Shown here in pieces: positions 4,579 through 60,145 of a DNA stretch of 64,000 nucleotides. Position 1 is the stretch's first letter. Every line of letters begins with the position of its first letter. Made by a program: the position numbers and the translations under genes. The stretch comes from Marsupella aquatica (Eukaryota > Plantae > Marchantiophyta): the NCBI GenBank assembly GCA_973895155.1, contig OZ316892.1, forward strand, positions 15,678,861-15,742,860, written 5' to 3'. The notes under the pieces were generated by a model, which saw only the letters and a list, made by a program, of their open reading frames with translations, did no database searches and was not told the origin of the DNA.

Positions 4579-5632
4579 AGGTTGGAGGAAAAAACATTCT
4601 CTTCCTCATTCTTCATGTCTACTCTCATATCTTGTGGCTCCTAGAGCCCGTTCAAGAGTTTCTCCACTTGTGGTGTCGTGTCAGTGTAGCATCTCATTGA
4701 GTGTTTGTCTCATGTTTTGTATATGCTTTCTAGTCTAAGCCGACGGTTTCTTACTGTAAGTAATATCATAGTTTTGTGTTTGTGATTTGATGACTTGGGC
4801 AACAATGGGCACTGAGAGTGTTTGTTGTGTTGGTTGGGGTGAAAGATTGAATCATTGTCAACAATTGCATGATAAACTGTTTCACTGGTTGCTTTCCAAT
4901 TGACTTTTGTGCTTGGAAAAGATGATGGGTTCCTGATTGAAACTTTAGCTAAAGTATCAAATGTGTCATTGTGTGTTTTGGATGTATTGTTGAGTGTACA
5001 GTCTAGCAATTTCTCATGCGCATCAATGGGCATTGCATCTTGGCAAATTTTTCATAGTGTTTTGTCATTTGAGTGCAAAGCAATGTCGTTCTTTGATATA
5101 TTTGGTCATAGACTTAAGCTCTTTGCTATATTGCGTTAGTGTGTAAATCACTTGCGAGCTCTGTCAAAGTTAGTTTCATTTGGGGCTTTTAACAATGTTA
5201 GTAAAAAGGAGAAAGTAGATAGGAAAAACTCATATTGATAGCGAGACAGAGATATTGCTAGCGAAGCAAAACCTCACATTTAACTTCACTATTTGGGAGA
5301 AAAACACTAATATCAATAATTTCAATCCATCGTGAGAGTTGCTAGCAAACCTCGCCAGCACAAATTGTTTCTTCATATCCAAAACCCTATGAACCAAAAT
5401 AGTACCAATAGTATTTTATTGAGATGACTTCAGATGATACATAACTAATTTTCCATTCTCAAATACATAAAAAGTACCACTTCTTTCTAAAGTGATATTT
5501 ATCCACAAGGATGAGGAAATATGAAGAAGATTTGGACAAAATCAATAGTCATCTAATCCTGACTGAACATCAACAGGACTATCGGAACCTGAATTCTCTG
5601 TGCTTTCCTCGCTAGTAGATACTTCACTACTC

Positions 5633-8600
5633 TCAGATCTCGATGTTGACTCGATCAGCCTCCTCATCTACAAATCTTGAGGCACGCACAGCCTCATTAT
5701 CAATCAGAGGATGCCTAAAAAACTTCCTATCAGATCCCCTCAACAGTCGTCGCCCCTTCATTTCCCAAGTCACTATGGGACTCTTGTCGACATCCTTCAT
5801 TCCTTTTTGTGTATACTCAGAGAGGTCCCAAGGCTTTTCAGGAGTATCCAGAAACGCCTCCTTAATTTTGCGCCGTAGTTGAAATTGTTCCTCCTGTTTC
5901 CATTCCAAACTCCCTTCTCTGTGGAAATGAAGCAAGACTGAACTTAGATGTATGAATTTTTATTTTGCAAAGAGAGTCAAAAAGGAATTAAAGGTCAAGA
6001 TTTAGGGAAGAAGCTTACGATCATTACTAAGAATCTTCCTTTGAAGGTGATGGAGTCTTGAGATCATCATCACCAAGAATCGCATACGGGTCCTCCTCTT
6101 CATCACCCAAGTCAACCACAGACTTTTTCCCTTTATCCAAAAAGTCTGAAACCGTTTCCACTTGAACTTTCCTCCCATGGACTGCTCGCAAAGCATCCGC
6201 AGCTGATTCCCCAAAAGCCGGACGATCCTCTAGCCCAATGACATGTCTCCCGGAGTAATCCCCGACAAAATAACTCCAACCTTCACCCACAGTCCAATAA
6301 AAAACTACATCCCCCGGATTTGTCAACAATTCAATGACAGTCTACATGAAACCTATAGAAACACGAGTCGACCCCGCGAAACCCATATCCAACAATCCAC
6401 TCTCTTTGGGAATAGAGAGGCTAATCAAAGATGACACATAGGGATCCTTCAAAGAAGAGAGTGCCTGAAACTTCTTATCCTTTGGAACTATCCCGTCCAA
6501 AGACGTCTTACAAAAGACATCGAGAACAAGATTGAAAACCTGGAGGGAAAACAGAACAACGATTTAGAAAATGAACCCAAATCTTGAAGAACTTTTTCTA
6601 GAAGGTGATTGCTAACGAGGGTCGCTATCAAAATAAAAGTGAACTTACATTAAAGTCAATGTTCTCTTTCCATAAAGGAGCCGGAAGCAGAATTGTGTAC
6701 GACTGTGCATGCTTGAAAAAACCACGAGCTTGAGCAACACTATATACGGCTAAGGTGTGATTAAAATCATCACTATGAAGAATAGCAAGGAATCCATTAT
6801 CAGCAAGATACTGTTTGGAGATATTGAAAAAATGTGCGAGGAGGGATTTGTCCCAAACGTTCCACTCTGGAACCGTTTTGTTAGTAATGAGGGGACGGAG
6901 TCCTATAGGAAGATAGACAAAACCTAAATCAAAACCTATTCCCGAAAGGGACTTTTTGTCCAAAACTATCGGAGATTCCCTAAGGCCTCTCGACAGGAGG
7001 CTCTTCATCAAAATATCACACTCTCAAACCCATGATGGTTTCTTCCTTTGGTTGACAATTGAGTTGGCAGAGTCAAGCAAACTTGACTTGAGAAAAATAT
7101 GTCTATTTTCCCCTGCAATAAACTCTATTCCTTTCCTCTCCAAACCAGAGTTTAATCTTGAATCAAATTCGGCCTCCTCATCCAAGTCAACAAAATTGCG
7201 TTTCTTCTTTGTTTTCTTGGAGCTCCCCAAATCTGCCACCTTCTTTGACTTTTTCTTCTTACTAGTTTCCTCAGGATATGCTTCCTCATTCGCGTCTGGA
7301 CTGGCTTCCTCTCCCGGTTGGTTGTGTGAACTCAATGAGCGCCTCTTTTCTGAAAAAGCACTGGGAGGTCAGAATGTAAACTTCAGGAATACACGATCAA
7401 AATATAACTTATTTTGATAGTGAGGTTCGCTAGCAATACTTACTTGTTCTGAGAGACTGTTGGGAAACAGAAACCTTTTGAGAATCTGCCTTTTCAGGGG
7501 CCTCGACTTTCACTCTTGACTTTCGAGTGCGGTCGACATTCACCCCTTGCCTCAAACATACTTCCTCCATCATGGCACAAGCCATTTCTTCCCTCTCCAC
7601 TGGACCAAATTTGATCTCAGAGAAAATATACTTGGGCTCCTCGCCCTTCACAATCTTGGTGTACACCGATCTTTCCGTTTGGTCAAAAGCAGTTGACCAT
7701 TGATCACTATCGAGATACCAGGGACAATTAAAAACTTCCCACGCAATAAGGTCTCTTTTGGGGTGAGAAGCATCCGCAGGATACATTGAAAACTGAGGAT
7801 ACGTAACATTCCCATCTGCATCTCGCCCAATGCTTGCCCATCCAGCAAAACAAAGGGGGTAACACCAAAAATACGAATCACTACTAATTTCCCGATCTAC
7901 AAAGAACTGATAAACATATCGCTCAGCCCTTCGACGAATTACATCAACATCAAATTTGTCACCAGACTTGGTTATCCAAATTGCTCGGAAAAACTTGGAT
8001 CTCACACGAAATGCATAATCCTTGAAATCATTGAGTATATGCTCCTTCAAAGATTCAAGATCTTTTTGAGGTGCAGTCTAAACGATCTTGAGGAGCACTT
8101 AATCCAATCTCATCCAAATAGGCTATCAGCAAATGGTTAGAAATGGATTCAACCGATGACCACATGGACCATGTGTGGCACCATTGCTTGGTCTCATTCT
8201 CGGAAAATCCCGCTCGATGAAACCATTGCTTCCTCAATTCTGGCTTACACTGTGCCTCAATCAATTGGCATCAAAGAAGTGGATCTAGAGTTGAGACAGC
8301 AGTGTACATTCAAACCCGATCCAATCCACAACCCAATGTTTGACGCCCTTCTCGCTTCTCCCTTTCACAGTACTCATACAACTCTGAGCATTTGGCAAGA
8401 AAACCCTTGTATTATGGATTCAAAATAGTTGCTAATTTACTGTTGCGGACAAACCATTCTTTTAGTTGCAAGGCAAACATCTCGTCATGAAGCTTCTTCC
8501 TCTCAACATCAGACCACGGCACATTCATTTGAATGGCTCTCTCTTCACAAACCCGCAAATCTTCTAGACCCGCAGCGATGTTTGCAGAGCACAAAATGTA

Positions 8601-9588
8601 TGTGAGTGCATCCAAACTCATTTTTTTTAGTACCACGCCTTATTCTTCACATTTGCCATCCTAGTTTCAAAGATCTTGTAGCTAGCAGGATCGATGATCT
8701 TCTCATAGTAAGACAGATCATATTGGAGGATTTTCTTCACCCGGTCTGCATCCAAAATCCAAGAATTCTCCACAACACACTGCCCAAGCCTGGACCCGCA
8801 AAGGAAAAGGATATCAATATATTAAGCAATCACTTAGGGAACCTAAACCACTTGCACAAAAGTGAAACAAAGCTATAAAACTTACTTGTTGAGCTCATGC
8901 ATCGCCGACTCAATCTCAATGAACGAATCACATTTCCCCTTCAAAATGCGATATATCACCCGAGGATGATACTTTTTGTCATCAGGGAACTGCTTAGCAA
9001 CTATCATCCACGAATATAGACGATGGTTCCCATCAAAAACCAAAAACATCTTGTCTTTCAAGCACAAGAATTCTGGATTTTTGTCACATTTGGCTTCAAA
9101 CGCGACATTTTGCTAAACCCAAACATCGTCCCAAGTTGCTCGAATATCTTCGGTGACCAGAATCTCAGCACCTTCCGCATCACAGACGGAAACATAAACT
9201 TGGCCAACTTGTCAACGTATCCATCCGTCTTGAACTTGGAGACAAGATTGTCAATAGCTCTTGATTGCACCTGGAGCGACCTCACCAAGTCCATGTTCAT
9301 GACTTAACAAAGTGGAACCCTAGGAGGTTCTTGCGTGTCCCCCCTTTCGTTCAACCCAAACAAAAGAGAGTGACGAGCAAGCACCTTGGAGAACGCGTCC
9401 GGAATTTTGCTGCCTCCCATCAGAACACCGTGTGTCTTGGGACATGACTGCTCTTCTTGGTGTTTTTAGGCCTATGAAAAGAATTTGCCTCTCTGCTGTC
9501 GACCGAGTCACTTGCCTGCTTGAGTTTGTAGTCTGTAGAAGGAGGCGGAGAAAGAAGTTTGGGAGCGCGGTGAAGAAGAATGATCCAT
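5633..9588 (-). pseudogene. MULE-1 accessory gene: ParB/Srx-like domain plus beta-class N4C/N6A methyltransferase-like domain, multi-exon, disrupted
   Basis: VRSLQ..IDNL..KF...GY and VFDGNHRL (9020-9034) match the ParB N-terminal signature. TNPGDVVFYWTVGEGWSYFVGDYSGRHVIGLE matches the SAM-binding region. GT-AG introns at about 8790-8885, 7351-7475 and 6541-6648. Collinear with 47341-51506. Confidence 0.75.
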
Positions 9589-12500
9589 TGGTTCACCACT
9601 AGGCTTGATACCCCTACAAAATTTTGCACGACTACTCCAAAGAGTGACCGCCATTAGGTACGGATGACACTCCACATACAAAGACATCGTACTAGCCTCC
9701 GCACCTCGACTGACCAAGCCGTGCGAAGTACAATGGAACGTTTGTAATACCGTCATCCATTTCTAAACGGGATATAATACTATCATCCGTATCGAAAGCA
9801 ACCGGATTTTGGAACGTGTCATACGGTAATAGGAACAACATACAATGGTAATTAGTTGTACCAACGGATTAATTAATGACAATGTCTACTTAATTACAGA
9901 TGGTTTAACGGAACCTATCCTAAATGCACAAATGTTTCATGACAAATTCGGAATATTTTAGAACACATAAGGCGAACATTTGACAATTTAAGTTACCGTT
10001 AAACGGTAACTTTTGGTAGCGACCCTCGCTATCAAAACTATTCCATATTTAATTATATCAATGAGATGAAGCCAACAACATGGTTAAATTTAGGTCAAAT
10101 GACCTCCAGAACTGGATGTTGGAAACTCTAATTTTTGATAGCAAAGGTCGCTATCAAAAGACGTTATCACTTTCTCTAAATTTGTAGGATATTCAGTGAT
10201 ATGAGGTTCAATATGCATATTTTTAAGAATAGTTAATGGTAGCGATGATTGCTAGCAAAAGTTGTCATTCTTTATTACCGTTGTATACCCGTTGGAAGAA
10301 TCTATCCGTTATTGTACGTGTAAATTGATGACCGAGAATCCGATGGATATGTACGATTGCTCGGCTGGTCTTTGGGGTCATCGGTCGGGTTATGGTTTGT
10401 TGGTCGGCCGTCTCCAAAGGTTCCTGGCGTTTTCGCCTTTCTTACGTTCTCCATGGAGGGTAGGTCCACACATTGAGGAGTAAACTATTTGAGATGTCTA
10501 TTCCCTGATTGGTGATTCAATCAGTGATTCAATCGATGATTCACTCACTCTCGGTCTATTCCAGGCGCTCGCTCGCCCTCGGTGATTCTCATCTCTCGCT
10601 CTTGAGAATTCAATCACTGCCTCTCTTGGTGATATAGGCGCTCGCTCTTGGTGATACCAGACGCCTGCTATCGGTGATTCTCTCGGATCTCTATGATATC
10701 TCTTACTACCAGATGCGTGCTGCCGGTGATTCTCTTGGATCTCTATGATATCTCTTTGCTCATGGACGGTATGCAGAGGATGCAGCCCGATAATGGGAAG
10801 CGTCCCATTGTAGAGGAAGAGGAGACCACGGAGCAGGAGTCTGAGACGTATGTTTTTGCCACTTCGGACATCCAAAATAGGAATAGCCTTCCACCAAATG
10901 AGAGAATGAGTCCAGGGGAGCGGAACATTCCATGGCTCAGGGATGAGCCCGCTCTTCCGTTTGAAGATCGGTTCTTCTTCCATGTTCCGTCCGATCCTGC
11001 CACAATTTGGCCCCGTCATCTAGAGCTTTGAACGCACGAGGTGTTGGGATCTCCTGATTTCCAGGATTTGAACTTTGCAAGCGGAAGCAGCCAAAGGCCT
11101 GTCTATAGAGCCCCAAATTGAGCATTTAGTTAGAGGAGGGAGCATGGTTTCACACAAGACATATACCGTCGAGTAGCTGGTGTCCCAGACGAAGAGATGT
11201 CTTCTAATTTGGCAAAGTCCCATCCCGATCCTGACCAAAAGGAGTAGGATCAATACTGGCAGATTCTTCATCTCTAGTGAGGCATAATTTAGGTTAAGAT
11301 ACTGTGACAATTTGCTAGCATCCAGTGTATGTTTTTTCCACGGAATATATAAAGAGTTTTAAATTAACTTGTCTTGGTGTATCAATTGGACATCCTAACG
11401 GATACAAAACAAATGACAAAATATTTAATGCCACAGTTGTTACCGTTTCAACATCTGGTTTGACATTGGAGCTTGAAAACTGGTTTTGTGTACTCTCTGG
11501 TTACAAATATTGACCCATCTCCGGAGAGTGTAGAAGCAGACATTGATGTTTATGAAATCAAAACTGAGTCTCCAAATAAAGTTTCTCTGATTTATCGAGT
11601 GAGTGCGTGTGACATGATATTGAGGGATAAAGGCTCCAATGAGATATCTCGCTTTGTCCGTAAGTTCTTGGAGTCTAGAGAGGATGTCAAACATGTTCAA
11701 TGTCTTCCCAAAGATTACAATGGGGACTCAATTTTTGAGCTTCCCCCAGTTGATTCATCCCCTAAAAGAGGATCTGGGCTCAGATACATGGATCGAGAGA
11801 ATGATTGCTATTGTTGGACTAGAATTATTCCAACTTATGCAAATGTCTTTCCAAAAGATTTGTATCAGTTCGCAAAAGTCCGATGCTTTGGGTCCATTGA
11901 ATGTCAAAATGGGAAGTGTGCATTCTTAGATAATGGGCAAGGGAAGGAATAGAGTGTCCTGGGCTGGAAGGGCAAAAGGAGACCAAGTCCACAAGACTAG
12001 TGAAGCAGTTTCTCCTGGAGGAATAGTATGTTTTCATTGTGACCAACCGCCTATATGTGTGGAGACGTGTCCCGCCTGAATGTTTTACATGTACCCACTT
12101 TCCTCGGTGGATAAGGAAAATGTGAGATTCATGTCGAGGCTTGCAATGCATGTCGGATACCACGTCCACCCACCAAATAGTTTTGTTTCGAGGGAGGCCA
12201 TGATTACTGCAGAGTCGGTCATCCGAGACCATCATTTAGTGAACCCCCTGGCCACACCAGCTCAACTAAAAATTGATGCAATAGAGGCATTGATGTCACA
12301 CTTGGCTCCGGAGAGTGCCGCTGGGATTTCTGTCCAGGACATTTAGGATATTTGGAGCTCATTGAGTGCTCTTGCGTCCAAAGAGAAGTTCCAAGCCATC
12401 TTGCGGAACTTCAAAATGGAGAATCCCTTGAAAAGGGAGTTTGACTCGATTCGGGACATGCAAAGGAACATTCATTTTCCTTACATCCAGAGATTTCTAT

Positions 12501-13437
12501 TTCCCGGTCAAGGCTCTATTACTGATCGAGATCATGTTTTCAAGATGAGCGTCAAAGGTCCGGGTTCTGGATTGGATATTCTTCAAAGAATGAGAAAAGG
12601 GGGTTCTCAGGAAGGATCATGGGTTAGTTTTGATGTTATGCATCGGATTACTACTGGCTGGCTGACATTTAGTGCGCACGTTTATGATCATAATATCCGT
12701 GCCCTGTGCACAATATTTACTTGTGAGCTAAAGTTTGAATGTTGTGAATCATTGTCTACGGCTTGGAGGTTGATGGTAAGTGTCGCATCCAAAAATGGTT
12801 TGCACGACATTACCATCCATGGTTTCATGGTAGATAATGCCACCGTAGGGTGGAATGCGGTTCAGAATATATTCTCCCAGGGTCTTCCTAATCCAGAAAA
12901 AGAAAGGTCTGATGCTTTTCATTTCTTCCAATCACTCCGGAGACATACCCGTGAAGGTATTTTGGAAAAAAATCACGATGAGCATTATGCTTTATGGGAC
13001 CATTTGAGGAACGCCTCCACATACGTTGAAGCTACAGAATTTCTTCAGAGATCAAGGAGTGGTGGCAATCCAGGAATTGTATTCCAGGGAAACTTCGCTA
13101 TCTGCAAGGATGGATTTCCTGGTGGGTCGTTTGATGGAGACAGTGGGGGAACTATATCAGGCTGGTATGGTCTTAATTCCAACTCAATTTTTCATGGTCG
13201 TCTCATCAAAATATTGCAAGCGATCTTCGCTAACATCGGTGGAATCCGTTACTTACGTTGATTTTGCTTATGTGTTTTGTTTCAGTCGGCGGACGCTCTG
13301 GAATCTGTCCACGCTTCCATGCATGCTTCCCAACCCAAAAAGAAAGTGACTCTAGTGGAGGCTTGCAAAGTTGACTCCAATCGTGCTGCCTTCCAAGTTG
13401 CTTGCTACATCGGATTTGAGTCCGGTGTGAGTAGAGG

Positions 13438-16400
13438 TGTGATGCCTAGACAGGAATCACTCGGCCGGTTAAGTGGGTAAAGCAGGAAGGCACCCTAGGA
13501 ACACCTTAGTATAGTGACAAAACAAGGAAAATATAAACAATTAGGGGCAACCATGGAACCCGGGCCGAGGCCGGAGGTAAGGCTGAGGGTGAAAACCCGA
13601 TTAGGGTTAGGGCGCGTTAAGCGTCGGCGGCTAGGAAGGATCAACGGGAAGAAGGACCGGCAAAGGAGAGGGGTAAGGAGCGCTTGCAGGAGATGGTGGC
13701 TCATTTGCGAGCACGAACTAGGCAGACGACTACGGGAGGCCAACTACTGTCAGCTGCTTAGGCAAGCACTCGGGGAGAGAGTAGATACCGACGATCAACC
13801 TAAGGAGGGTATGAGCAACGTCAATCAAGCGGCACATTTCTGGGGATGCCTGTTCGAACGGGCAACTGAGTACATCAAGACTTACGAGGACGAGGAATCA
13901 GAAAGGGCAGCTCGAGAACGGCAGGAGCTCGCTCGATTGTGGGAGCTGCAGAAGACGGCTTTCTTAGGAGGCGAACTCATCAAGGACGAGTTCCTGTGGA
14001 CGCCTACTTCCAATCAACTCGACGATCTTCTGTTTTGCAAAGACAGCGTCGTCGGCATCCGAGAGGCCATCAAGAACTGCAACGACATACACTGGGAATT
14101 AAAGGGTAGCACGGAAAGGTGGACCCAAGCAATGGTGCTAGGAGAAACCTCCACGGCAGCAGAGATGAAGAGGAAGGGAGCCGTCAACGATGAAGCCACC
14201 CCGGCAAAAAGAACGAGGTCGGCGGCACCAAAGAAGCCAGCCGAGCAGCAGAGCAGGAGGCAGGGAGAAGCCGAAGAGGAGGAGGTTGATCCCATCAAGG
14301 CCATTCCAACCAGGGATGACACCTGGAAGGGCTGGGCGGCAACCCTACCGGTGGAGGTGCAACTACATTTTGCACGGGAGGAGGATGCATGCTTTACGGC
14401 CATGCAGACCAAGAAGTACCAAGGCTTCATGGCCGGATCCGGCTTGGAGGCCTTTGTAAGATTACCATGGCTGAAGCCGGAGGTACCGGAGTCAGACCTA
14501 TTAGAATTCGTGGGGTCATGGGAACCCGAGACCAATTGCACGAGGATATATGGGAAGGATTTCTATCTTACTCCCAAGGTAATTGCCAAAGTGTTTGGCT
14601 TGCCGATAGGCAATAAGACCAAAGTTGATACCAGGAAGACCTTGCCTGACAAGGAGTTCCGGTCGTTCCCCGGGCCATCAACGAAGAATGGCTTCTTCCG
14701 GAACACCTGCACCAACCCGCACATAGGAGAGATGATCGACTTCTTGCGGGTGACCATGCATTGTAACTTGCCGAGGGCAGAGATCGGCAAGGCACAGGTC
14801 TATCTGGCAGAAAGGCCAGACCCAAGCCGGGACTACAACGGGTACCTCCTCAACCAATTGAAGAAGATCTTAAAGGAGGAGCAGCAGGTAATCGGCATGG
14901 GGAGCGTGTCGCGGCTTGGCTATCACATGCCGCTGTTGTGCCGGTATGCCAGAGGTCAGACTTTTGCCCCGGTACTTCCCCTGCAGGTAAGAGCACCCGA
15001 GGAAGCTCCAACGCCAAGGCCGTTGGCTGAGAAGCCTCAACCACCTGTTAGTCCTACGATCGAGCAGGTGTTTAGGCCCAGGAAGGAGGACTTGCCGATG
15101 CAGCAACCAGGCATGCAGAGTCTGCTGAAACTACTGGAGAAAGAAAAGAAATCGGCATCGGCAACAACAACGGCAACGGCAACAATGCAGGACACTACTA
15201 CAGAGGTAGGCCTACACCGGCTCACAAGAGAAAACCCCTTTGCTGGAGACAAGGAGAGAATCAGGCCGGAATCCAAGCCAGGTGTTCGAATGTACGTGGG
15301 AACCTCAAGCTCCGAATCTGAGGCAGAATTGCCTGAAGCTCCTACCGACGAAGAGGAGAGGGAGAAGCCGGACGTCCAAGAGGTAGAGGAGGCAGTGGAG
15401 GACTGCAGCCATGATAATTCCGGCTATGGGTCGGACCATCACGTTCCAGGAGTAAGGACCTGTGGCCGGTTTGTCCCCACACTTCCAAGGGTAGTGCGAG
15501 GGGACCCCAACCAGCAGAGTAGCCCTGAGTCTCCCCCACCAGATGTTGCTCCCCCGAGCTTCGATGGCATAAAACAGACAGTGCAGGAATTTCAGGAGCG
15601 AATCAAGCAGGAGGAGGAGGCCGCCCTGGCTAAGGAAAAGGATTTACCAGGAGGAGATTGGCCGGAGGACATCAGGCGGCTAGCCGAAAAAGGAAGCAAA
15701 CCTCTAGCCACGATTGAAGAGATCCGCAGGACGGCTTGGGAGCAGAGGCCACGATGGGCGATGCCGATCACTTCTACTTACTCCACCTACGCTAAGAATA
15801 GAGCCATGGAGTATGGTGAGATGTGTGGGGAACTTGCGCTCGGCATCTTTGGAGAGGAGTTGGAGGTAGGACCCTTTTTCCATAGGGAGCAGGAGGAGGC
15901 CAAAAACGAGCTGGAGGGGGCACGTAAGGACCTGGATGAAACCCAAGAGGAGTTGGAGGAAATCACGAGGAAGATGGAGAACCTACAGCGGCGGGCCGAC
16001 AACCAAACAGAGCGGCTGAAGAAACAAGCCGCAGTATTTAAATGCTTAGCTGCAGCAGGTCCATCTCCCGTTGGGACAAACCAGTTACCAGGGGTGGTAA
16101 TTGTCGAAGGACAAGCCGCGCCACCTGCACCAGTGCCGGAAGTAAGTGGGAAGGGGAAGGGACCAGCTGCCGAGCCACCAACGAAGAAGAAGCGGAAACC
16201 TTCAGGGTCAAGGAGTAATACGACTTCACAGGCCGTGGTGATCAAGGAGGTAGACCCAGCACCGACCCCAGACAGGGTCACGGCTAAGGATCCAACTACC
16301 CTAGGGGAAGGGGAGGCCAAAGCCGAGGGAGTGGCTGAAGCCGAAGCCGTGGGAGTGGCTGAGGCCGAAGCCGTGGGTATTGCCGAGGCCGGTGTCGAGG

Positions 16401-17464
16401 CTGAAGCCGAAGGTGGACCCAGTCAGGCCGAGGGAGAGTTGACTCGGTCAAGGGCAGGTAATCTGTCAGTAGGCGGGCCAACGGCAGTGGCTGAGGAGGA
16501 AGTGTTGGGGGCGTCCATTGAGGATCCACCACCGGTGTCGTGACGGTGCAAGGGCGCCGTTCCTTTTAGGGAGGGCGGACGTGGAGGGAGGAGGCGTGAG
16601 TGGGCAGGGCGGGCGCGGATCTCCACGTTTAGGATTAGGATTAGAACCAGGAGCGGCCCTGACACTTAGCTTAGTGGGATTGCGGTTCCACTGGTAGGAG
16701 CAACACTTGTGCTCCTGCCTTGCTGTACATAGGTAGATTCGGGCAAGTAGATTACTGTCAGGTAGATTAGGCTTACGCTGCAAAGAATGGCGGATCCACT
16801 ACCAGGATAAGTACCTGGGCAGCGGGGAGCTCAGGGCCTCTTCTTTAGCAAGTTTTTAGTTTGCACCAGCCGGGCTGGGATCAAGTAGTACGAGAAGCTC
16901 TCGGTTAGTCATACAGTGACCCTTGTGTATATTCATGTTTCCTCATGCCTAAGAGCTGAATAGAGTTGGCCTCACGGCTTAGTTCGCAGAACTTGTGTAT
17001 GAGATGTACTGTTTGTATGGCAAGTGCATGGTATGACTCAGTCAGAATGAGTCATTTTGCTATTTGTGTGTCGCATTAACTTGTGTGAAGAGTGCCCACA
17101 TCAACAGAAGGAAGGAAAGTAAGCAGAGGAGTGAGAGTTGGATGTGTCGAGCTGAGAGAGGTCTTAGCGGCTTAACCAAGCCTATTGGGGATCATTCCGG
17201 CGGCGGAATCCAAACATACCTAACAAGACGGAGGGGAAGACAGGGGAAGACAGGGGAAGGCCTATATTAGGCCGGCTACGTATCTCATGACCCGATGAAG
17301 GATCTGTCCAGTATATGTGTGTAAAATGTTAATAGTAGTAGTAGAAGGTTAGCAGCGTCCCATGCCGCTAAGCCGCGGAAACGGCCTCGCCAAGCACGAA
17401 ACCTACGGGAATCGGCTTGAGCTGGGGGGTTTCTTGGGTTTAGGGAGCCATGGGACGCACCACA
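13438..17464 (+). mobile_element. Giant gypsy LTR, family C, copy C1 (4027 bp)
   Basis: TGTGATGCC...CACCACA flanked by AGAGG (13433-13437, 17465-17469); near-identical to 21912-25937. Confidence 0.92.
13553..16543 (+). CDS. Intact LTR-encoded protein, short variant (996 aa from first ATG): PMD/Transposase_32-like domain plus coiled coil
   Basis: Uninterrupted ORF lying wholly inside LTR C1. LLEFVGSW..IYGKDFYLTPKVIAKVFGLP resembles plant-mobile-domain-type motifs (judged by eye). Confidence 0.8.
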   Translation: MEPGPRPEVRLRVKTRLGLGRVKRRRLGRINGKKDRQRRGVRSACRRWWLICEHELGRRLREANYCQLLRQALGERVDTDDQPKEGMSNVNQAAHFWGCLFERATEYIKTYEDEESERAARERQELARLWELQKTAFLGGELIKDEFLWTPTSNQLDDLLFCKDSVVGIREAIKNCNDIHWELKGSTERWTQAMVLGETSTAAEMKRKGAVNDEATPAKRTRSAAPKKPAEQQSRRQGEAEEEEVDPIKAIPTRDDTWKGWAATLPVEVQLHFAREEDACFTAMQTKKYQGFMAGSGLEAFVRLPWLKPEVPESDLLEFVGSWEPETNCTRIYGKDFYLTPKVIAKVFGLPIGNKTKVDTRKTLPDKEFRSFPGPSTKNGFFRNTCTNPHIGEMIDFLRVTMHCNLPRAEIGKAQVYLAERPDPSRDYNGYLLNQLKKILKEEQQVIGMGSVSRLGYHMPLLCRYARGQTFAPVLPLQVRAPEEAPTPRPLAEKPQPPVSPTIEQVFRPRKEDLPMQQPGMQSLLKLLEKEKKSASATTTATATMQDTTTEVGLHRLTRENPFAGDKERIRPESKPGVRMYVGTSSSESEAELPEAPTDEEEREKPDVQEVEEAVEDCSHDNSGYGSDHHVPGVRTCGRFVPTLPRVVRGDPNQQSSPESPPPDVAPPSFDGIKQTVQEFQERIKQEEEAALAKEKDLPGGDWPEDIRRLAEKGSKPLATIEEIRRTAWEQRPRWAMPITSTYSTYAKNRAMEYGEMCGELALGIFGEELEVGPFFHREQEEAKNELEGARKDLDETQEELEEITRKMENLQRRADNQTERLKKQAAVFKCLAAAGPSPVGTNQLPGVVIVEGQAAPPAPVPEVSGKGKGPAAEPPTKKKRKPSGSRSNTTSQAVVIKEVDPAPTPDRVTAKDPTTLGEGEAKAEGVAEAEAVGVAEAEAVGIAEAGVEAEAEGGPSQAEGELTRSRAGNLSVGGPTAVAEEEVLGASIEDPPPVS

Positions 17465-21600: not shown

Positions 21601-21923
21601 CCGAGAGAGTAGAATATAGACAGAATATCATGAAGCAGCAGTATGATAAAAGGTTAAAAGTAGTTAGTATTCATACCGGTGATCTTGTGCTACTTTATGA
21701 CAGTAGGTATAGTAGGTTTCCAGGAAAGCTTTACACTCACTGGTTAGGACCCTTTAGAGTAACCATGATGTTCCCCAATGGCTCCGTACAATTGGCCAAC
21801 ATTACGGGAGAGGTATATCCAGTTCGCATCCATTATGACCGCCTCAAGAAATACTATATGGACGAAGATGAAGTTGTTCGCGAGGACGCTTCACAATTAA
21901 GTGGGGAGCTATGTGATGCCTAG
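18689..21923 (+). CDS. pol: Ty3/gypsy pol, 5'-truncated (RT, RNase H, integrase), non-chromovirus type
   Basis: KDHFPLPF, DGYSGYNQI, MPFGLCNAP, FIDD; RNase H DVS..E..TDH; integrase H..H..C..C, WGID, SDRG, ERAN, WLGPF. No chromodomain. The stop codon lies in the first 12 nt of LTR C2. Gag and protease are absent. Confidence 0.95.
21899..21911 (+). other. Polypurine tract of the family C element
   Basis: AAGTGGGGAGCTA directly precedes the TG of LTR C2. Confidence 0.7.
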
Positions 21924-31206: not shown

Positions 31207-34200
31207 TGTGATGCCTAGACAGGAATCACTCGGCCAGTTAAGTGGGTAAAGCAGGAAGGCACCCTAGGAACACCTTAGTATAGGGACAAAACAAGGAAAA
31301 TATAAACCATTAGGGGCAACCATGGAACCCGGGCCGAGGCCGGAGGTAAGGACGCTGAGGGTGAAAACTCGATTAGGGTTAGGGCGCGTTAAGCGTCGGC
31401 GGCTAGGAAGGATCAACAGGAAGAAGGACCGGCAGAGGAGAGGGGTAAGGAGCGCTTGCAGGAGATGGTGGCTCATTTGCGAGCACGAACTAGGCAGACG
31501 ACTACGGGAGGCCAACTACTGTCAGCTGCTTAGGCAAGCACTCGGGGAGAGAGTAGATACCGACGATCGACCTAAGGAGGGTATGAGCAACGTCAATCAA
31601 GCGGCACATTTCTGGGGATGCCTGTTCGAACGGGCAACTGAGTACATCAAGACTTACGAGGACGAGGAATCAGAAAGGGCAGCTCGAGAACGGCAGGAGC
31701 TCGCTCGATTGTGGAAGCTGCAGAAGACGGCTTTCTTAGGAGGCGAACTCATCAAGGACGAGTTCCTGTGGACGCCTACCTCCAATCAACTCGACGATCT
31801 TCTGTTTTGTAAAGATAGCGTCGTCGGCATCCGAGAGGCCATCAAGAACTGCAATGACATACACTGGGAATTAAAGGGTAGCACGGAAAGGTGGACCCAG
31901 GCAACGGTGCTAGGAGAAACCTCCACAGCAGCAGAGATGAAGAGGAAGGGAGCCGTCAACGATGAAGCCACCCCGGCAAAAAGAACGAGGTTGGCGGCAC
32001 CAAAGAAGCCAGCCGAGCAGCAGAGCAGGAGGCAGGGAGAAGCCGAAGAGGAGGAGGTCGATCCCATCAAGGCCATTCCAACCAGGGATGACACCTGGAA
32101 GGGCTGGGCGGCAACCCTACCGGTGGAGGTGCAACTACATTTTGCACGGGAGGAGGATGCATGCTTTACGGCCATGCAGACCAAGAAGTACCAAGGCTTC
32201 ATGGCCGGATCCGGCTTAGAGGCCTTTGTAAGATTACCATGGCTGAAGCCGGAGGTACCGGAGTCAGACCTATTAGAATTCGTGGGGTCATGGGAACCCG
32301 AGACCAATTGCACGAGGATATATGGGAAGGATTTCTATCTTACTCCCAAGGTAATTGCCAAAGTGTTTGGCTTGCCGATAGGCAATAAGACCAAAGTTGA
32401 TACCAGGAAGACCTTGCCTGACAAGGAGTTCCGGTCGTTCCCCGGGCCATCAACGAAGAATGGCTTCTTCCGGAACACCTGCACCAACCCGCACATAGGA
32501 GAGATGATCGACTTCTTGCGGGTGACCATGCATTGTAACTTGCCGAGGGCAGAGATCGGCAAGGCACAGGTCTATCTGGCAGAAAGGCCAGACCCAAGCC
32601 GGGACTACAACGGGTACCTCCTCAACCAATTGAAGAAGATCTTAAAGGAGGAGCAGCAGGTAATCGGCATGGGGAGCGTGTCGCGGCTTGGCTATCACAT
32701 GCCGCTGTTGTGCCGGTATGCCAGAGGTCAGACTTTTGCCCCAGTACTTCCCCTGCAGGTAAGGGCACCCGAGGAAGCTCCAACGCCGAGGCCGTTGGCT
32801 GAGAAGCCTCAACCACCTGTTAGCCCTACGATCGAGCAGGTGTTTAGGCCCAGGAAGGAGGACTTGCCGATGCAGCAACCAGGCATGCAGAGTCTGCTGA
32901 AACTACTGGAGAAAGAAAAGAAATCGGCATCGGCAACAATGCAGGACACTACTACAGAGGTAGGCCTACACCGGCTCACAAGAGAAAACCCCTTTGCTGG
33001 AGACAAGGAGAGAATCAGGCCGAAATCCAAGCCAGGTGTTCGAATGTATGTGGGAATCTCAAGCTCCGAATCTGAGGCAGAATTGCCTGAAGCTCCTACC
33101 GACGAAGAGGAGAGGGAGAAGCCGGACGTCCAAGAAGTAGAGTCCGAGGCAATGGAGGACTGCAGCCATGATAATTCCGGCTATGGGTCGGACCATCACG
33201 TTCCAGGAGTAAGGACTTGTGGCCGGTTTGTCCCCACACTTCCAAGGGTAGTGCGAGGGGACCCTAACCAGCAGAGTAGCCCTGAGTCTCCCCCACCAGA
33301 TGTTGCTCCCCCGAGCTTCGACGGCATAAAACAGACGGTGCAGGAATTTCAGGAGCGAATCAGGCAGGAAGAGGAGGCAGCCCTGGCTAGGGAAAAGGAT
33401 TTACCAGGAGGAGATTGGCCGGAGGACATCAGGCGGCTAGCCAAAAAAGGAAGCAAACCTCTAGCCACGATTGAAGAGATCCGCAAGACGGCTTGGGAGC
33501 AGAGGCCGCGATGGGCGATGCCGATCACTTCTACTTACTCCACCTACGCTAAGAATAGAGCCATGGAGTATGGTGAGATGTGTGGGGAACTTGCGCTCGG
33601 CATCTTTGGAGAGGAGTTGGAGGTAGGACCCTTTTTCCATAGGGAGCAGTTGGAGAAGCACCAATTAGAAGAAGCGGTGGCTTTAGAGAGAAGCAAGAAG
33701 GACGAGGTCATTCGGCGGCTTAGGAGGATGGAAGCCGAGATTGAAGATCTAAGGGCGGCCAAGAAAGCCCAAGATGAACTACGGATTAAACGGCATGAGC
33801 TGAACATCATGCAGGGGCAGTTGGACACCGCGCAGGCTGATAATCAGAATATCAAGGATAAACTGACTCAGACGCAGGGAGAGTTGGCCGACACGATCAA
33901 AGAGAGGGAGAAGTGGAAGCAAGAGCTGAAGAATACAGAGGAGGCCCACATAACAGCCAACAGCCGGGCCATGGCGGAGACCCAAAGAAAGGAATGGGCG
34001 TTGAAGGGGGAGCTCGAGAAAATCCGCGGAGCCCTTGAGCAGAAGGAGGCCGAGTTAGGGAAATCCTATCAAGGGATTATGGCGCTGCAGCAGGAGCTTG
34101 CGTCCCTGACGGCCAGCTTCAAGGCCGACCTAAGGGAGAAGGACGAGATGCTCGATCAGACTTATGCCAAGATGAACCAGATGGAGTCTGTCATCATTGC

Positions 34201-35860
34201 AGAGCTCGACAAGGAGCTAAGAGCAACCCGGGAGGAGAGGACTACCTTGAAACAAGAACGGGAGGAAGCCCAGAAGGAACTAGAGGAGGCGCACAAGGAC
34301 CTGGATGAGACCCAGGAGGAGTTGGAGGAAATCACGAGGAAGATGGAGAACCTCCAGCGGCGGGCCGACAACCAAACGGAGCGGCTAAAGAAACAAGCCG
34401 CAGTATTTAAGTGCTTGTCTTCATCAGGCCCAACTCCAATTGGGGCAACCAAGTTACCAGGAGTGGTACTGGCCGAAGAAAAAGCCGCGCCACCTGCACC
34501 AGTGCCGGAAGTAAGTGGGAAGGGGAAGGGACCAGCTGCCGAACCAGAAAAGAAGAAAAAGCGAAAACCTTCAGGGTCAAGGAGTAATCCGACTCCACAA
34601 GCCGTGGTGACCAAGGAGGTAGAACCAGCACCATCCTCCGGCATGAATACAGCAATAGATCCCGCTATCCTCACAGGTGGGGGTGGTGCGGCCCAAGCCG
34701 AACTACTCAGTAATGAGGCCGGTATTCCAGATCCGCCTCTTGAGCAGGCCGGGGAGACCGTAGCCGAGGCTGAGGCCGTAACCGATTCCCAAGCCGATGC
34801 CGACGCCGATGGTGGACCCAGTCAGGCCGATGGAGAGTTGACTCAGTCAAGGGCAGGTAATCTGTCAGAGAATGAACCTACAACAGTGGCTGAGGAGGAA
34901 GCGTTGGGGGCGTCCATTAAGGATCCTCCACCAGTGTCGTGACGGTGCAAGGGCGCCGTTCCTTTTAGGGAGGGCGGACATGGAGGGAGGAGGCGTGAGT
35001 GGGCAGGGCGGGCACTGATCTCCAAGTTTAGGATTAGGATTAGGATCAGGACCAGGAGCGGCCCTGACACTTAGCTTAGTGGGATTGCGGTTCCACTGGT
35101 AGGAGCAACACTTGTGCTCCTGCCTTGCTGTACATAGGTAGATTCGGGCAAGTAGATTACTGTTAGGTAGATTAGGCTTACAATGCAAAGAATGGCGGAT
35201 CCACTACCAGGATAAGTACCTGGGCAGCGGGGAGCTCAGGGCCTCTTCTTTAGCAAGTTTTTAGTTTGCACCAGCCGGGCTGGGATCAAGTAGTACAAGA
35301 AGCTCTCGGTTAGTCATACAGTGACCCTTGTGTATATTCATGTTTCCTCATGCCTAAGAGCTGAATAGAGTTGGCCTCACGGCTTAGTTCGCAGAGCTTG
35401 TGTATGAGATGTACTGTTTGTATGGCAAGTGCATGGTATGACTCAGTCAGAATGAGTCATTTTGCTATTTGTGTGTCGCATTAACTTGTGTGAAGAGTGC
35501 CCACATCAACCAAAAGGAAGGAAAGTAAGCAGGGGAGTGAGAGTTGGATGTGTCGAGCTGAGAGAGGTCTTAGCGGCTTAACCAAGCCTATTGGGGATCA
35601 TTCCGGCGGCGGAATCCAAACATACCTAACAAGACGGAGGGGAAGACAGGGGAAGGCCTAGATTAGGCCGGCTACGTATCTCATGACCCGATGAAGGATC
35701 TGTCCAGTATATGTGTGTAAAATGTTAACAGTAGTAGTAGAAGGTTAGCAGCGTCCCATGCCGCTAAGCCACGGAAACGGCCTCGCCAAGCGCGAAACCT
35801 GCGGGAATCGGCTTGAGCTGGGGGGTTTCTTGGGTTTAGGGAGCCATGGGACGCACCACA
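31207..35860 (+). mobile_element. Giant solo LTR, copy C3 (4654 bp)
   Basis: TGTGATGCC...CACCACA with TSD CTAGC (31202-31206, 35861-35865). Confidence 0.93.
31322..34942 (+). CDS. Intact 1206-aa LTR-encoded protein, long variant with extended coiled coil
   Basis: Single ATG-initiated ORF filling about 78% of the LTR. Confidence 0.85.
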   Translation: MEPGPRPEVRTLRVKTRLGLGRVKRRRLGRINRKKDRQRRGVRSACRRWWLICEHELGRRLREANYCQLLRQALGERVDTDDRPKEGMSNVNQAAHFWGCLFERATEYIKTYEDEESERAARERQELARLWKLQKTAFLGGELIKDEFLWTPTSNQLDDLLFCKDSVVGIREAIKNCNDIHWELKGSTERWTQATVLGETSTAAEMKRKGAVNDEATPAKRTRLAAPKKPAEQQSRRQGEAEEEEVDPIKAIPTRDDTWKGWAATLPVEVQLHFAREEDACFTAMQTKKYQGFMAGSGLEAFVRLPWLKPEVPESDLLEFVGSWEPETNCTRIYGKDFYLTPKVIAKVFGLPIGNKTKVDTRKTLPDKEFRSFPGPSTKNGFFRNTCTNPHIGEMIDFLRVTMHCNLPRAEIGKAQVYLAERPDPSRDYNGYLLNQLKKILKEEQQVIGMGSVSRLGYHMPLLCRYARGQTFAPVLPLQVRAPEEAPTPRPLAEKPQPPVSPTIEQVFRPRKEDLPMQQPGMQSLLKLLEKEKKSASATMQDTTTEVGLHRLTRENPFAGDKERIRPKSKPGVRMYVGISSSESEAELPEAPTDEEEREKPDVQEVESEAMEDCSHDNSGYGSDHHVPGVRTCGRFVPTLPRVVRGDPNQQSSPESPPPDVAPPSFDGIKQTVQEFQERIRQEEEAALAREKDLPGGDWPEDIRRLAKKGSKPLATIEEIRKTAWEQRPRWAMPITSTYSTYAKNRAMEYGEMCGELALGIFGEELEVGPFFHREQLEKHQLEEAVALERSKKDEVIRRLRRMEAEIEDLRAAKKAQDELRIKRHELNIMQGQLDTAQADNQNIKDKLTQTQGELADTIKEREKWKQELKNTEEAHITANSRAMAETQRKEWALKGELEKIRGALEQKEAELGKSYQGIMALQQELASLTASFKADLREKDEMLDQTYAKMNQMESVIIAELDKELRATREERTTLKQEREEAQKELEEAHKDLDETQEELEEITRKMENLQRRADNQTERLKKQAAVFKCLSSSGPTPIGATKLPGVVLAEEKAAPPAPVPEVSGKGKGPAAEPEKKKKRKPSGSRSNPTPQAVVTKEVEPAPSSGMNTAIDPAILTGGGGAAQAELLSNEAGIPDPPLEQAGETVAEAEAVTDSQADADADGGPSQADGELTQSRAGNLSENEPTTVAEEEALGASIKDPPPVS

Positions 35861-38800
35861 CTAGCAAAGTACGCCTTTCCGCCAAGGTATAAATTCTTTC
35901 TTCTCCGCTCCATCTCCTCGTGGAACTTCTTGACGAAGAAGGACGCCCACTTCTTGGGCCGGTAGTTCTCCACCTAGATGACCTGGGCGGCCGATATTTT
36001 GCCTCTGGGTTCCATCATGTGGAGGGCATACCGTTGGAAATCCAGGCGTTTTGCCACTTCTGGGATGAGGCACGTCCTCATCAAGAATCCATTGTCCACT
36101 GCTCCCTTGGTCGGGAAGCTAGAAGACTGGTATTTAGCTCCCTTGCCCCCAAGAGCTCGCAACTCTACCCGGTTTATCCCCTCGGGTAGGCCAAAACTCA
36201 TCTTCAAACGTGCCTCATTGAGACACATCACTCTCCCGTGCGCTCGGGTTTGTTGACGGGCCTCGTCAAAGTTCTGAATGAACTCCATCATATCCTACCT
36301 GTAGTACCTGCTTCCGTTCTAAGGGAGAGAGGCGAGGTGCTCAAACCCTTGGGTCTTTAGATAGCATGCATGCTTGGGGTGGAGGATGTTCTTGTGAACA
36401 TTGTCCCCCATGCGATGCATGGTCAGCTTGGCTACCGCAACCATGGCCAAAGGCAACCCGGATACGGCTGCGGGTTCCTTCCTCTTCCTTCCCCGGGACT
36501 GATTCCCGGGGTGAATGGAAGAGGGGGACACTTCCCCATCCTCCCTATCTGGTGGCGGTAGTGCTACCACCGTGAGTATTGGTGTCGGGGCCGCTAGAGT
36601 CACCGTGTTATCCCCTCAGGCTTGCTGGAGTGGCGCCGGGTTGTTCGGCAACTGTAGAGTCGTACCCCGCGGCCGTCGATTCAGAGGAGGGTGAGCCTCC
36701 TCGTCTTTGGAGCTAATATTCACCGCATTCACCACGGATTGTACTCGGAGAGATGGTGCAACCGGTGGCGGGGATTGGCTCGGTTGAGGCCGAGGGGGTG
36801 TGGGTGCGAGTCCGGGCACTAGCTCGGGTGGGCCAACATCGATCGTTGATGGCATAGTTGCCATGAAGTTCTGCAGGTGCCGGTGGAGGTTTTCCAAAGC
36901 AAGTGTAGACGGCATTGTCGACCAGGTAGTGTCAAACTCGCTATTGATGATAGCCTGGACCCGAGCGGGGATGTGGTCAAAGTGGTGCCGCTATAAGTCG
37001 ATCGTGCCCGGGATAGTGAAGACCGAGTTCGGAAGCCAAAGCAATGCCTCCCAGAAGCTGATGTATTTGCCTCCGTTGAAGAAGTACCCTGATATTTCTT
37101 CGGGTCGGTAAAGCTCACTCTGGGACGGGTAATCAAAGTTAAGGAGATAGTGATGGCAACCTGCTAGGCGGATGGCTCTCTTGTACTCGCGTTCGATCTC
37201 GTATTGTCGCGGGTTGGCGTGTTTTAATGAGTCGGCCAAGTGCAGCCCGATAGACAAGAACTGCGTCCAAAATCGCAAGGCCAAAATAGAAAGGATCATG
37301 TGCGACATTCATGGGAGATAGAAGGCAACTAAGGATGGTCGAGAGGACTGGGATCGTAGCTACCGCGTGGACTGAAGAACTGGTGCACTGCAAAGGATCG
37401 GCCCCCTTTTATACCCTGAGAGCTTGTCGGTCGCCTGACGCCTCCTCATTGCTTATGGGCCGAGCCTTTCACGCTTGCGGTGTACCGGCCACTCCGCCAG
37501 TCCGGGTCAGCATGTGTCAGTGGCCACCTCCCGGAGTTTGTTATACAAACCCGAGGAAGGGGCCCACTACACGCTCACAACCCGGGCGTGCGAATGGTGA
37601 CCCACCACCGGCCCGAACACGAATGCCCCTTATTGACTAATGATTTCCTACTCATAATGGCTACCTAAATACTGTCGTTACTCTAATAATTACAGCCTAA
37701 GATACCCCTAACGCGCGTGCTAAGCATGGTTAGGCCGAATCACTTATTACCCGCCGTACCGGCGGCATCACAACTCTCATCGACATGACACGGTTCTTCT
37801 TACATCCCCTGCTAAGATTGCGTCAAGGAGACAAAATCTAAACTCTACTGAGTTTAGTCCTAATTATACAAGAGGGCCGCCAACATCAATGGATTGGCCC
37901 GAGGGAGCTTCGATACCAGAGGTTGTCAATTTGTCTGAGAGTGAATCGTTTGAGGTCTTTCAGACTCCGCCCAGACGTGTCGCTACTCGTTCAACTCCTA
38001 CTCCTTCCCCTACACCTGTAGTCCCACTACCCGTTGCCGAGTCAAGTGCTCCGTTGACATGCCATGAAGTAAGAGTTCCCCAAGGGAGTTGGTATATAGG
38101 TAGAATGTCTTCCAAAGGGGTCGGCCCAAAGTGTTGTGGGTTTCTTGGTAGGTCTGCAACTCGAGAGGAATGTCAAAATTCTGTGAAAAAAGTATCGTTT
38201 TTGGACCCAAGGGGCCGTGTGGCTATTGCGGTTTTTGCTGCACACAAGATTTTTGGATCAAACGTACCTCGAGTCACTTGGTTCTGTCCAAATAATGTTT
38301 GTTTTCAAGGAAAGCCACGACGTTCCATTGTTTCCTTACCACCAATTCCTGATGTTTTGCCTGTTATGCTAGGGACCAGTCTTGCTAGTGAGGAAATTAT
38401 GTTCCTCATTGAGAAAGGGCTTTCCTTGGATTTAGGCATGCAAACTAATCCCTCTGGAAGAGAACATGTGACAAATGTCTCCCCATCGGTGAGTGCCCCT
38501 TCACCTCTGGAGTTACAAATTAATGTCAGTACATTTTGTGAGATGGTAAACTTGAATGACCCGTTGCATCGATTTTCAAGTCGAAATGGGAAGTCAATTC
38601 AAATGAGGGTCACTCTTTTGTCAGAGCATTTGAAACGCATCAAATCATCAGAGGAGGAGCAGATGCGAGTATTGACAGAGAACATCATCGAGTTGGGAAA
38701 TGGTTGGGGAAAACAATTGTTTGTTGCAACACACGAGACAGATGGAAGGATACCAAAAAGATATTAATTGGGTCCAAGTTTGTTGTTTTCCATCATGCTC

Positions 38801-40573
38801 CTGTGACGATTTCTTCAATCACCATACACGAGGTCTTTCATATGTTCCGTGCAAACATTTATATTGGGTTTTTTGTTATCGATTTAATGTTAGTGTTCGA
38901 GAAGAAATTTATGTCAGCCAACCAGCCCTTAGCTTGTCTGAGGTGAGGTATATTTTGAAGATGTAGGGAAAAGTTGTATTGCATGAAAAATTTGATTTTC
39001 ATGCCTAGCCGAGAATTATATCCAGCTTATTATGAAAGTTTTTTTATCTTTGAATCTATTTTATTGTCCATGAGTGGTTAATGTGTAAAGTTTTTGGAGT
39101 GATCATTGTTGGGGTCTAATATTGTTGGCGTTCTTTGCTAACAATAAGTCTCCCTACAAAACATACCAAATATGAGAGTGTGCCCGGTAATTGATACACT
39201 AAATCATTCGACAATAGTATCTGTTAATATTGCTAGCGAGGATATATTCTTGTTATCCTGGCTTAATTACAATGCTGCAAAGTGAACATATGAGGACAAT
39301 TTATCCCAAAAATTGCACAAATTTTCCTTATACCAGGAGTTTTTTCCTAATAACAGTAAAATTTCTCCTTTTTCCTAACATCGTTAGTATACCCGTTTCA
39401 TTTTTGCATTGTAAAACATTGTAAAACATCATTCAACCTTTTATTTGCGCGATGTTGCATTTTTTGTGACGCATCGCAAGTTTATCTGGCCGGTGGGACA
39501 GTACTATTGTGATGATGCAAGTACATACAAAAGGGACAAGCCAAGGGTGAGCACCATGGGCCAAGCAAGTGAACGGAGCATGTAGGGGGCATTTTGGTTC
39601 CCAATACAATACAAATATATAAAGGCAAAGCGAGTGGAGGGGGGAGTTGTTTTGGCTCCCTTGCACATTGATACACTCGTTAAGTGGGAAGGGGGACTAT
39701 CAGCTCCCTTCTCTTGAGAGCTCTTAATAAGGGGCTTGTGGCTCAAATCATTTAGGAGGGGAGGGGGAAGCACAAGGCTCCCTTCCCTTGGGAGCCTTTA
39801 ATTAAGGCTCATGGCATTGGGAGGGACCAAAGCCCTATGCAAATACAAGCAAGTGTGTGAGAGAAGGCTTGAGGCCCATTAAGGAGGGGGCAAGAGAGGA
39901 GTTTAGATGCTTACTCCTTTTAGGAGAGTTTAAAGCTTTGCCCAAGGCCCTATGCAAGGCTTGTACGGGCCTTTGTGAAGGCTTGTGCCTTTAACTTAGG
40001 CCCACCTGGGCTCTAACAAGTATGGAGGGCATTAAGGGAGGCTCATTGGCCCCAGGTGCTCAAAGGTAGTATGAGGTGAGGAAGGGAGCACAAGCCCAAA
40101 GGTGCAAGGCCCTATGCGCTTTGAGCTAGGGTTGAAACTTGGCAGCCAAGGGTGCAAGCCGTAAGGGCGGTGAGGGTTTAGGCTTTAGGGTTTAAGGTCA
40201 ATGCCCTCTTGGTCCTTTGTATAAATTTTAATTTTAAAACTTTTTCTTGTCATTTGACTTTTGCTTGTGGCTTTTTTCCTTCCAAGTGGATAGGTGTCAT
40301 TTTCTCGTGCCTTCTACTATATTTATTGAATGTACTTTGATTCCCTAGAAAAAAATACTTTCTAGAGAGCTCATTTTTAGCCAAAAATTGCAATTTTGAC
40401 TGTCATTAAGGTAGAAGTTTTTTGCAACACTTTGCAAGAGAAGACTCAAGGGAGTTGAGCAGGGCTAGTAAAATCAATTTGTGCATTGTTGTTGCAGAAT
40501 TTGTAATACAGCCTTTGCCACTACAGAGCCATAATCTACATAGACCATCAATCCTACCAGGGGTCACGAGCAT

Positions 40574-46724: not shown

Positions 46725-46789
46725 GAGGCTTTTCACGATGACAGCAAACAGCAATCACATGGAGGCTTTTCACGATGACAGCAAACAGC
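46716..46789 (+). repeat. 37-bp tandem duplication covering the TSD and left TIR tip
   Basis: AATCACATGGAGGCTTTTCACGATGACAGCAAACAGC twice. Confidence 0.9.
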
Positions 46790-60117: not shown

Positions 60118-60145
60118 AAACCCGAAACCCTAAACCCTAAACCCT
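60118..60145 (-). repeat. Interstitial plant telomeric repeat, about four TTTAGGG units
   Basis: Plus strand AAACCCG AAACCCT AAACCCT AAACCCT. Confidence 0.8.

Follow-up and report, generated by a model that had tools for sequence, protein, structure and literature searches.

A 64-kb stretch of the liverwort Marsupella aquatica (contig OZ316892.1, positions 15,678,861 to 15,742,860; hereafter the window) contains two decayed Mutator-like elements (MULEs), A and B, and short gapped palindromes of a different variant are dispersed through the non-coding DNA of each. Both elements bear pseudogenes, each with a transposase gene and a head-to-head spliced accessory gene encoding a ParB-like and methyltransferase (MTase)-like protein. 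Family-specific sites are supported by the unmixed variants within an element, by a third variant in a third family, and by sister-clade read-through sequence that fits the pattern. The reader of the palindromes is probably the element's own ParB-like accessory protein, a reading to which we assign a probability of about 0.6. The window is repeat-rich eukaryotic DNA, and the two elements lie in it as follows (no strand assigned):

5182 to 39394: element A, decayed Mutator-like, delimited by its target-site duplication (TSD) and an alignment of its terminal inverted repeats (TIRs)
about 46725 to 62527: element B, decayed Mutator-like, delimited by its TSD and inserted in a long interspersed nuclear element

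Sites were scanned across the window as exact matches, with at most 1 mismatch, and then with positions 6-10 left free. The motif TAGCGC-N3-GCGCTA occurred 7 times exactly and 14 times within 1 mismatch, and TAGCGA-N3-TCGCTA once exactly and 6 times within 1 mismatch; in 100 local shuffles, either motif had on average 0.11 and at most 1 match at that tolerance. With positions 6-10 free, 21 sites appeared at no more than 1 mismatch (6 in A and 15 in B), and the remaining 42 kb of the window contained none. Two-mismatch sites that fitted each family were added, together with a marginal three-mismatch site at 39126 in A, giving final sets of 8 (A) and 17 (B); the two-mismatch sequence at 9994 in A, which is without the flank and core pattern, was excluded. 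The first-pass annotation had assigned TAGCGC-N3-GCGCTA to family B, where it stands as written, and TAGCGA-N3-TCGCTA to family A, where it holds as a consensus of decayed copies, only 1 of 8 being exact and 39126 marginal. The sites (no strand assigned) are distributed as follows:

5343 to 5357: A site, subterminal, 2 mismatches
6613 to 6627: A site, accessory intron, 1 mismatch
7418 to 7432: A site, accessory intron, 1 mismatch
10017 to 10254: three A sites between the divergent genes (10017, exact; 10139; 10240)
13218 to 13232: A site, transposase intron, 1 mismatch
39126 to 39140: marginal A site, subterminal, 3 mismatches, TTG flanks retained
46909 to 47259: three subterminal B sites (46909, 47005, 47245)
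48403 to 48480: two B sites, accessory intron (48403, 48466)
49251 to 49265: B site, accessory intron
50689 to 50703: degenerate B site, accessory intron 1
51878 to 53466: six B sites between the divergent genes (51878, 51937, 52053, 52188 and 53339, exact; 53452)
60352 to 60481: three B sites, transposase intron (60352, 60396, 60467)
62190 to 62204: B site, subterminal, 2 mismatches

None of the 8 A sites or 17 B sites lies in coding sequence, which makes up 68% of A and 64% of B. The two elements are collinear by tblastx. Identity is 44% in the core of the transposase and about 30-50% along the accessory gene. This collinearity and the GT..AG ends bore out all three pairs of equivalent introns named by the first-pass annotation: 7418 with 49251, 6613 with 48403 and 48466, and 13218 with 60352, 60396 and 60467. 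Support for the introns themselves comes from alignment, from their GT..AG ends and from relatives whose gene calls end at the corresponding positions. Accessory intron 1 has no site in A and the degenerate site 50689 in B, and the last accessory intron is site-free in both; the match between equivalent introns is partly expected, because most non-coding segments carry sites. None of the 15 tandem-repeat rows covers a site.

Comparison of the half-sites revealed that position 6 separates the two families. This base is A in 15/16 half-sites of element A (T in 1/16, C in 0/16) and C in 29/34 half-sites of element B (T in 5/34, A in 0/34), so that neither element shows the other's base and the two variants are not mixed within either element. 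The concerted change at positions 6 and 10 that had been proposed is present, but the flanks and the centre differ as well. With its flanks the A motif reads TTG-N-TAGCGA-NSN-TCGCTA-N-CAA, with G in 16/16 half-sites at -2 and T in 16/16 at -3, and the B arm mostly extends as (A/T)TA-N; the identity claimed for the outer arms thus holds for TAGCG only. Position 7 is C or T in 34/34 half-sites of B and free in A, and the B centre is derivable from CGG/CCG through C>T decay. Across the A and B sites, C>T/G>A accounts for 17/23 departures from consensus, and most departures from the motif are C>T decay. At 48471 (7 contigs and the whole depth in each of 3 runs) and at 50692, contigs of other B copies have the consensus base, in a comparison of 40 of 880 difference rows that covers 2/10 decayed site positions in that stretch; sample X1 may be the one from which the window itself was sequenced. 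The palindrome has a gap: immediately beside the core, bases pair in only 3/8 A and 5/17 B sites, and the next two pair in 8/8 A sites, a gapped pairing that fits base read-out in duplex DNA.

A metagenome transposase scan yielded a third family, represented by a sole locus from 109 candidates (contig L001). Its transposase is about 44-55% identical, and the intron of that gene that bears the A and B sites has three sites here as well: three copies of ATTGC-TAGCGC-CG-GCGCTA-GCAAT, against 0 in 200 shuffles. The equal site length that had been claimed is valid for A and B, but the L001 spacer has 2 bases, one fewer; the N2 core was not found in the window, nor the N3 core in L001. Hints at the level of protein sequence come from the read-through tails of 9 prokaryote-style gene calls of transposase relatives that run into the site-bearing intron. 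The tail of P0002, in the clade of A (support 100/99), fits an A-type site with its flanks at 1 mismatch, and that of P0006, the sister of L001 (support 97/98), fits a C-type N3 site at 0 mismatches, each matched by 0/400 random tails. The site is a feature of the whole lineage, varying in base 6, flank and spacer. Since C occupies position 6 in two lineages, A at this position may be derived, on a tree whose base is weakly placed.

The accessory gene of each element lies on the minus strand, as follows:

5560 to 9560 (ends approximate), minus strand: A accessory pseudogene, with ParB-like part, helical middle and amino-MTase-like part (tblastn of P0166, E 4e-45)
about 8791-8885, 7350-7443, 6540-6648 and 5919-6018, minus strand: A accessory introns
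47320 to 51510, minus strand: B accessory pseudogene, with ParB-like exon (50791 to about 51510), middle part and N6_N4_Mtase match (47745-48356)
about 50662-50790, 49207-49339 and 48357-48490, minus strand: B accessory introns

A HMMER search found 221 relatives of the ParB-like exon, and a word-indexed search found 0. Among 150 accessory matches, the 20 that are named come from Riccia sorocarpa and Adiantum ferns, with the Ectocarpus and red-algal proteins not recognised among the matches, and the full-length Riccia protein P0166 (1207 aa) contains both domains and aligns along both accessory genes of the window. The motif (D/E)GNHR occurs 106 times in 156 proteins, and the B copy reads GNHH. 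The structural model of P0168, a full-length Riccia relative (predicted local distance difference test [pLDDT] score mostly >85 over residues 10-500), matched KorB (Z 7.4, root mean square deviation [rmsd] 2.7, 95 aligned), PadC (Z 6.9) and ParB-N (Z 6.2), and Atlas look-alikes scored 0.94-0.95. The accessory protein is accordingly predicted from the model to carry a ParB/Srx N-terminal fold with a GxxR motif. The MTase-like part matched PF01555 (N6_N4_Mtase, E 1.3e-07), DpnA and CcrM, and it retains the S-adenosylmethionine-binding motif, with the catalytic motif placed before it; its model had a pLDDT of 38 and was set aside. Searches of PDB sequences with A5, A2 and P0167 returned nothing significant, and the Atlas matches of P0013, all below 0.9, serve as a lead only. 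No phage relatives of P0166 were found, and no ParA-like gene was recognised in A or B. Databases name the MTase-like domain of the Riccia proteins P0164, P0166 and P0167 'trimethylguanosine synthase', which is probably an automatic misnaming.

A dimeric protein reader is supported indirectly by the gapped palindrome, the strict non-coding placement and the ParB-fold protein in the same element. We propose that the palindromes would be parS-like loading sites for a dimer of the element-encoded ParB-like protein. The dimer would touch both half-sites, so that a change in specificity would select an equal change in both arms. Modelled on ParB, VirB and VANC, the protein would load at the sites and perhaps spread along the element, and its MTase-like half could protect or mark the element against host silencing. 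The differences in base 6, flank and spacer would keep each family's helper mainly on its own copies. A bolder version would be a eukaryotic ParB-parS system in land-plant MULEs, in which a CTP-gated clamp loads at the family palindromes and slides while the MTase-fold module rewrites or shields chromatin, the families together amounting to a naturally occurring set of orthogonal pairs of clamp and site, set apart by half-site base, flank and spacer length; this extension is tentative and on balance doubtful.

Several results weigh against a ParB-like reader or parts of it. A de novo palindrome search, as the first-pass annotation had suggested, ranked the sites top in B and in L001 but found only 2 exact arm-5 matches in A, and 7/9 read-through tails, several of them too short, match no variant at 1 mismatch or less. 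The helical residues 181-306 of P0168 resemble DeoR/SorC helix-turn-helix (HTH) domains only at noise level (Z 4.2-4.3, rmsd 2.0, 46-49 residues), Foldseek E-values to ParB/Noc are 0.16-0.8, and some phage ParB activators are described as having no DNA-binding domain (available text of PMC13229309). The L001 contig shows the transposase alone, with the accessory gene outside its view, and a spacer change from 3 to 2 bases would demand much of the geometry of a rigid dimer. The catalytic motif is also unusual. Beta-class N4-cytosine/N6-adenine (N4C/N6A) DNA methyltransferases canonically carry (D/N/S)PP(Y/F), and at this place A, B and P0013 read YLP(T/I) and 6 named relatives read DLPT, DMPS, DMPT, DFPI or DVPF; DPPY appears in none of them. 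With this alteration, ordinary writing of 4-methylcytosine or 6-methyladenine (4mC/6mA) by the accessory protein is doubtful, above all in the A and B families, and the MTase-like half would more likely bind DNA as a non-canonical or catalytically dead module than act as a standard 4mC/6mA writer.

Co-evolution of the protein and its site, as the first-pass annotation had inferred, is plausible. The symmetric change is weak evidence for it, since reading by a dimer, or fold-back repair, would alter both sides of any palindrome. Its support is limited in other ways too: DNA from three families is too small a sample, related elements have motifs in common through descent, no DNA-binding residue could be assigned, and the sites might instead be bound by the transposase.

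The transposase is the binder in the main rival explanation, in which it would read the sites through its Cys/His-rich N-terminal region for transactivation or synapsis, with the accessory gene irrelevant to them. The transposase genes are arranged as follows:

11380 to 13437, plus strand: A transposase, 5' part, with Cys/His-rich N-terminus, D..D, DxxH, intron 13165-13285 and E; stops and frameshifts
37773 to 38960, plus strand: A transposase, 3' part, with SWIM-type CxC..CxH motif
58400 to 62066, plus strand: B transposase pseudogene, intron 60304-60569, first catalytic D replaced by N

A DDE triad with a (C/D)xxH motif and an 8-11-bp target duplication are hallmarks of MULEs. The A transposase contains the catalytic motifs FDVMH, MVDNA, DAFH and LESVH, which are conserved in relatives; besides this DDE triad with DxxH, element A has a perfect 9-bp TSD (GTTTCATTT) at both sides and degenerate TIRs of about 50 bp, and element B has an 8-bp TSD (ATCACATG) and short TIRs weaker than those of A. 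Pfam profiles gave no transposase match in the window pieces or in 9 relatives, the SWIM-type CxC..CxH motif being found by eye, and the Mutator-like label is therefore based on the motifs, the TSD length and the TIRs. No relatives of the transposase turned up in scans of viral and prokaryotic contigs. Its named relatives come from Riccia sorocarpa and, with those of the accessory gene, make a liverwort origin likely. A transposase reader would be consistent with the subterminal sites (5343, 46909-47245 and 62190) and with the site variant tracking the transposase tree. MULE transposases can act as sequence-specific regulators, which also counts against a ParB-like reader: AtMu1 transposase is described as binding cognate motifs and activating its own family (available text of 10.64898/2026.08.24.746577). 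However, that binding was at TIRs, whereas the TIRs of A and B resemble each other and contain no palindrome, and most sites are internal. A parS-like site beside a ParB-fold gene is the simpler pairing, and we consider a transposase reader unlikely.

Alternatively, the palindromes could be hairpins (DNA fold-backs or RNA stems) whose symmetry template switching creates and maintains and which local duplication or conversion multiplies, with no co-evolved protein. Site 2 of L001 lies in a 60-bp perfect palindrome (L001 1172-1231) with 29-bp arms flanking a 2-base loop, and the L001 sites have 26-bp palindromes in common; the 60-bp palindrome suggests fold-back duplication as a route by which sites arise or are repaired. 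Fold-back repair is real in this lineage and could account for simultaneous change in the two arms of one site, but it leaves the agreement among 8-17 unrelated places unexplained. Flank identity exceeded the 99.5% null in 1/28 A pairs and 1/136 B pairs, as local duplication would predict; the flanks are otherwise mostly unrelated, the arms are gapped at position -1, and the sites lie outside tandem arrays. A hairpin, moreover, need not hold one sequence over 8-17 dispersed sites, and one intron retains sites across three families. This explanation is improbable. Least likely of all is a host transcription or chromatin factor binding a common TAGCG core, with family differences as drift: all three families share the TAGCG..CGCTA core and sites cluster between the two promoters, but A and B have exclusive variants in one genome, no sites lie outside the elements in the window, and the spacing is altered in the third family.

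A ParB-like reader has several published counterparts, compared here from the available text of each source. The accessory protein of Sola1-1_Ec32 from Ectocarpus combines ParB-like and N4C/N6A methyltransferase domains and is suggested to target and modify the element that encodes it (PMC12477816). By domain description it resembles the present protein, a single protein of about 1100-1200 aa with both domains, encoded on the strand opposite the transposase; it differs in belonging to a Sola element of a brown alga rather than to Mutator-like elements of land plants, and its binding site is unnamed in that text. Plavaka PAG3 of the red alga Bostrychia encodes ParB with a 2-oxoglutarate oxygenase and has adjacent inverted-repeat arrays (10.1101/2025.02.11.637652). 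It shares a ParB-like accessory gene and internal inverted repeats that have been put forward as sites of self-binding, but has tandem arrays beside the gene and an oxygenase, in contrast to the single family-diagnostic palindromes across introns, spacer and ends described here. In Arabidopsis, VANC proteins of VANDAL elements exert anti-silencing through family-specific short motifs, with protein-motif co-evolution and hypomethylation in trans (PMC5735166). VANDAL is likewise a Mutator-like element with an accessory gene and family motifs in intron, intergenic and terminal non-coding DNA; its motifs are 8-9 bases long, non-palindromic and amplified as tandem repeats, unlike the palindromes here, which form no tandem arrays, and the domains recognised in the present protein are ParB-like and N6_N4_Mtase. 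In bacteria, the paralogues ParB and Noc bind palindromes with symmetrically differing half-sites, parS and NBS (PMC7383237), and VirB is a ParB-family anti-silencer (PMC10245682). The ParB N-domain and a palindromic site in several copies are shared (about 16 bp there, cores of 14-15 bp here in 8, 17 and 3 copies), whereas a clear HTH domain and CTP use are shown in the bacterial systems. Chlorophytes have Dam fused to ParB-HTH, an architecture unlike that of the accessory gene here (PMC4738411). A link to Marchantia DN4MT1 is conceivable; the available text of the paper on it (10.1101/2021.02.12.428880) does not mention ParB.

The protein class and the idea of self-binding have thus already been published for algal transposons, and family-specific motifs with co-evolution for VANDAL/VANC. 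What is new is the dispersed, family-diagnostic palindromes in land-plant MULEs, of which no report was found in the literature, taken largely from outside subscription papers. Self-binding has been proposed for ParB-type accessory genes of algal transposons, with no binding test reported in the available text (PMC12477816, 10.1101/2025.02.11.637652). The three families provide precise, mutually exclusive candidate sites that are ready binding probes, and cross-binding could decide on a second, ParB-based self-recognition beside VANC and on sliding clamps on eukaryotic chromatin. The motif also allows families to be recognised quickly, and orthogonal pairs of protein and site could serve to label or edit chosen loci.

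Both elements are interrupted by insertions of long terminal repeat (LTR) type:

13438 to 37772 (no strand assigned): nested stack of LTR-type retroelements, 24 kb, splitting the A transposase; no sites at 1 mismatch or less
53718 to 58378, minus strand: solo LTR-like insertion in B, with TG..CA ends and a 5-bp TSD (GTCAC)

Both borders of the nested stack are the TGTGATGCC end, in opposite orientations, with no TSD, and about 65 codons of the A transposase are gone; together, the borders and lost codons suggest recombination between two retroelements. Within the stack, an open reading frame (ORF) for reverse transcriptase, RNase H and integrase is intact (18573-21923). The LTR-like unit with TG..CA ends, 4.0-4.7 kb long, occurs as the solo copy in B and also at 13438-17464, 21912-25937 and 31207-35860. 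It encodes an ORF of 1014-1224 aa with no Pfam family above cut-off, and a giant LTR that itself codes for a protein is unusual. Contig depth at the end of this unit far exceeds that of element B. A third ORF, broken and of low complexity, lies between both genes in each element (10774-11290 on the plus strand in A, 52400-53022 on the minus strand in B); the two are mutually unrelated by tblastx, and each is bracketed by site clusters. The left end of B, with its target duplication, forms a perfect 37-bp tandem duplication (46716-46791). An older relative of the internal parts of the nested retroelements, at 65-75% identity, occupies positions 765-4579 of the window.

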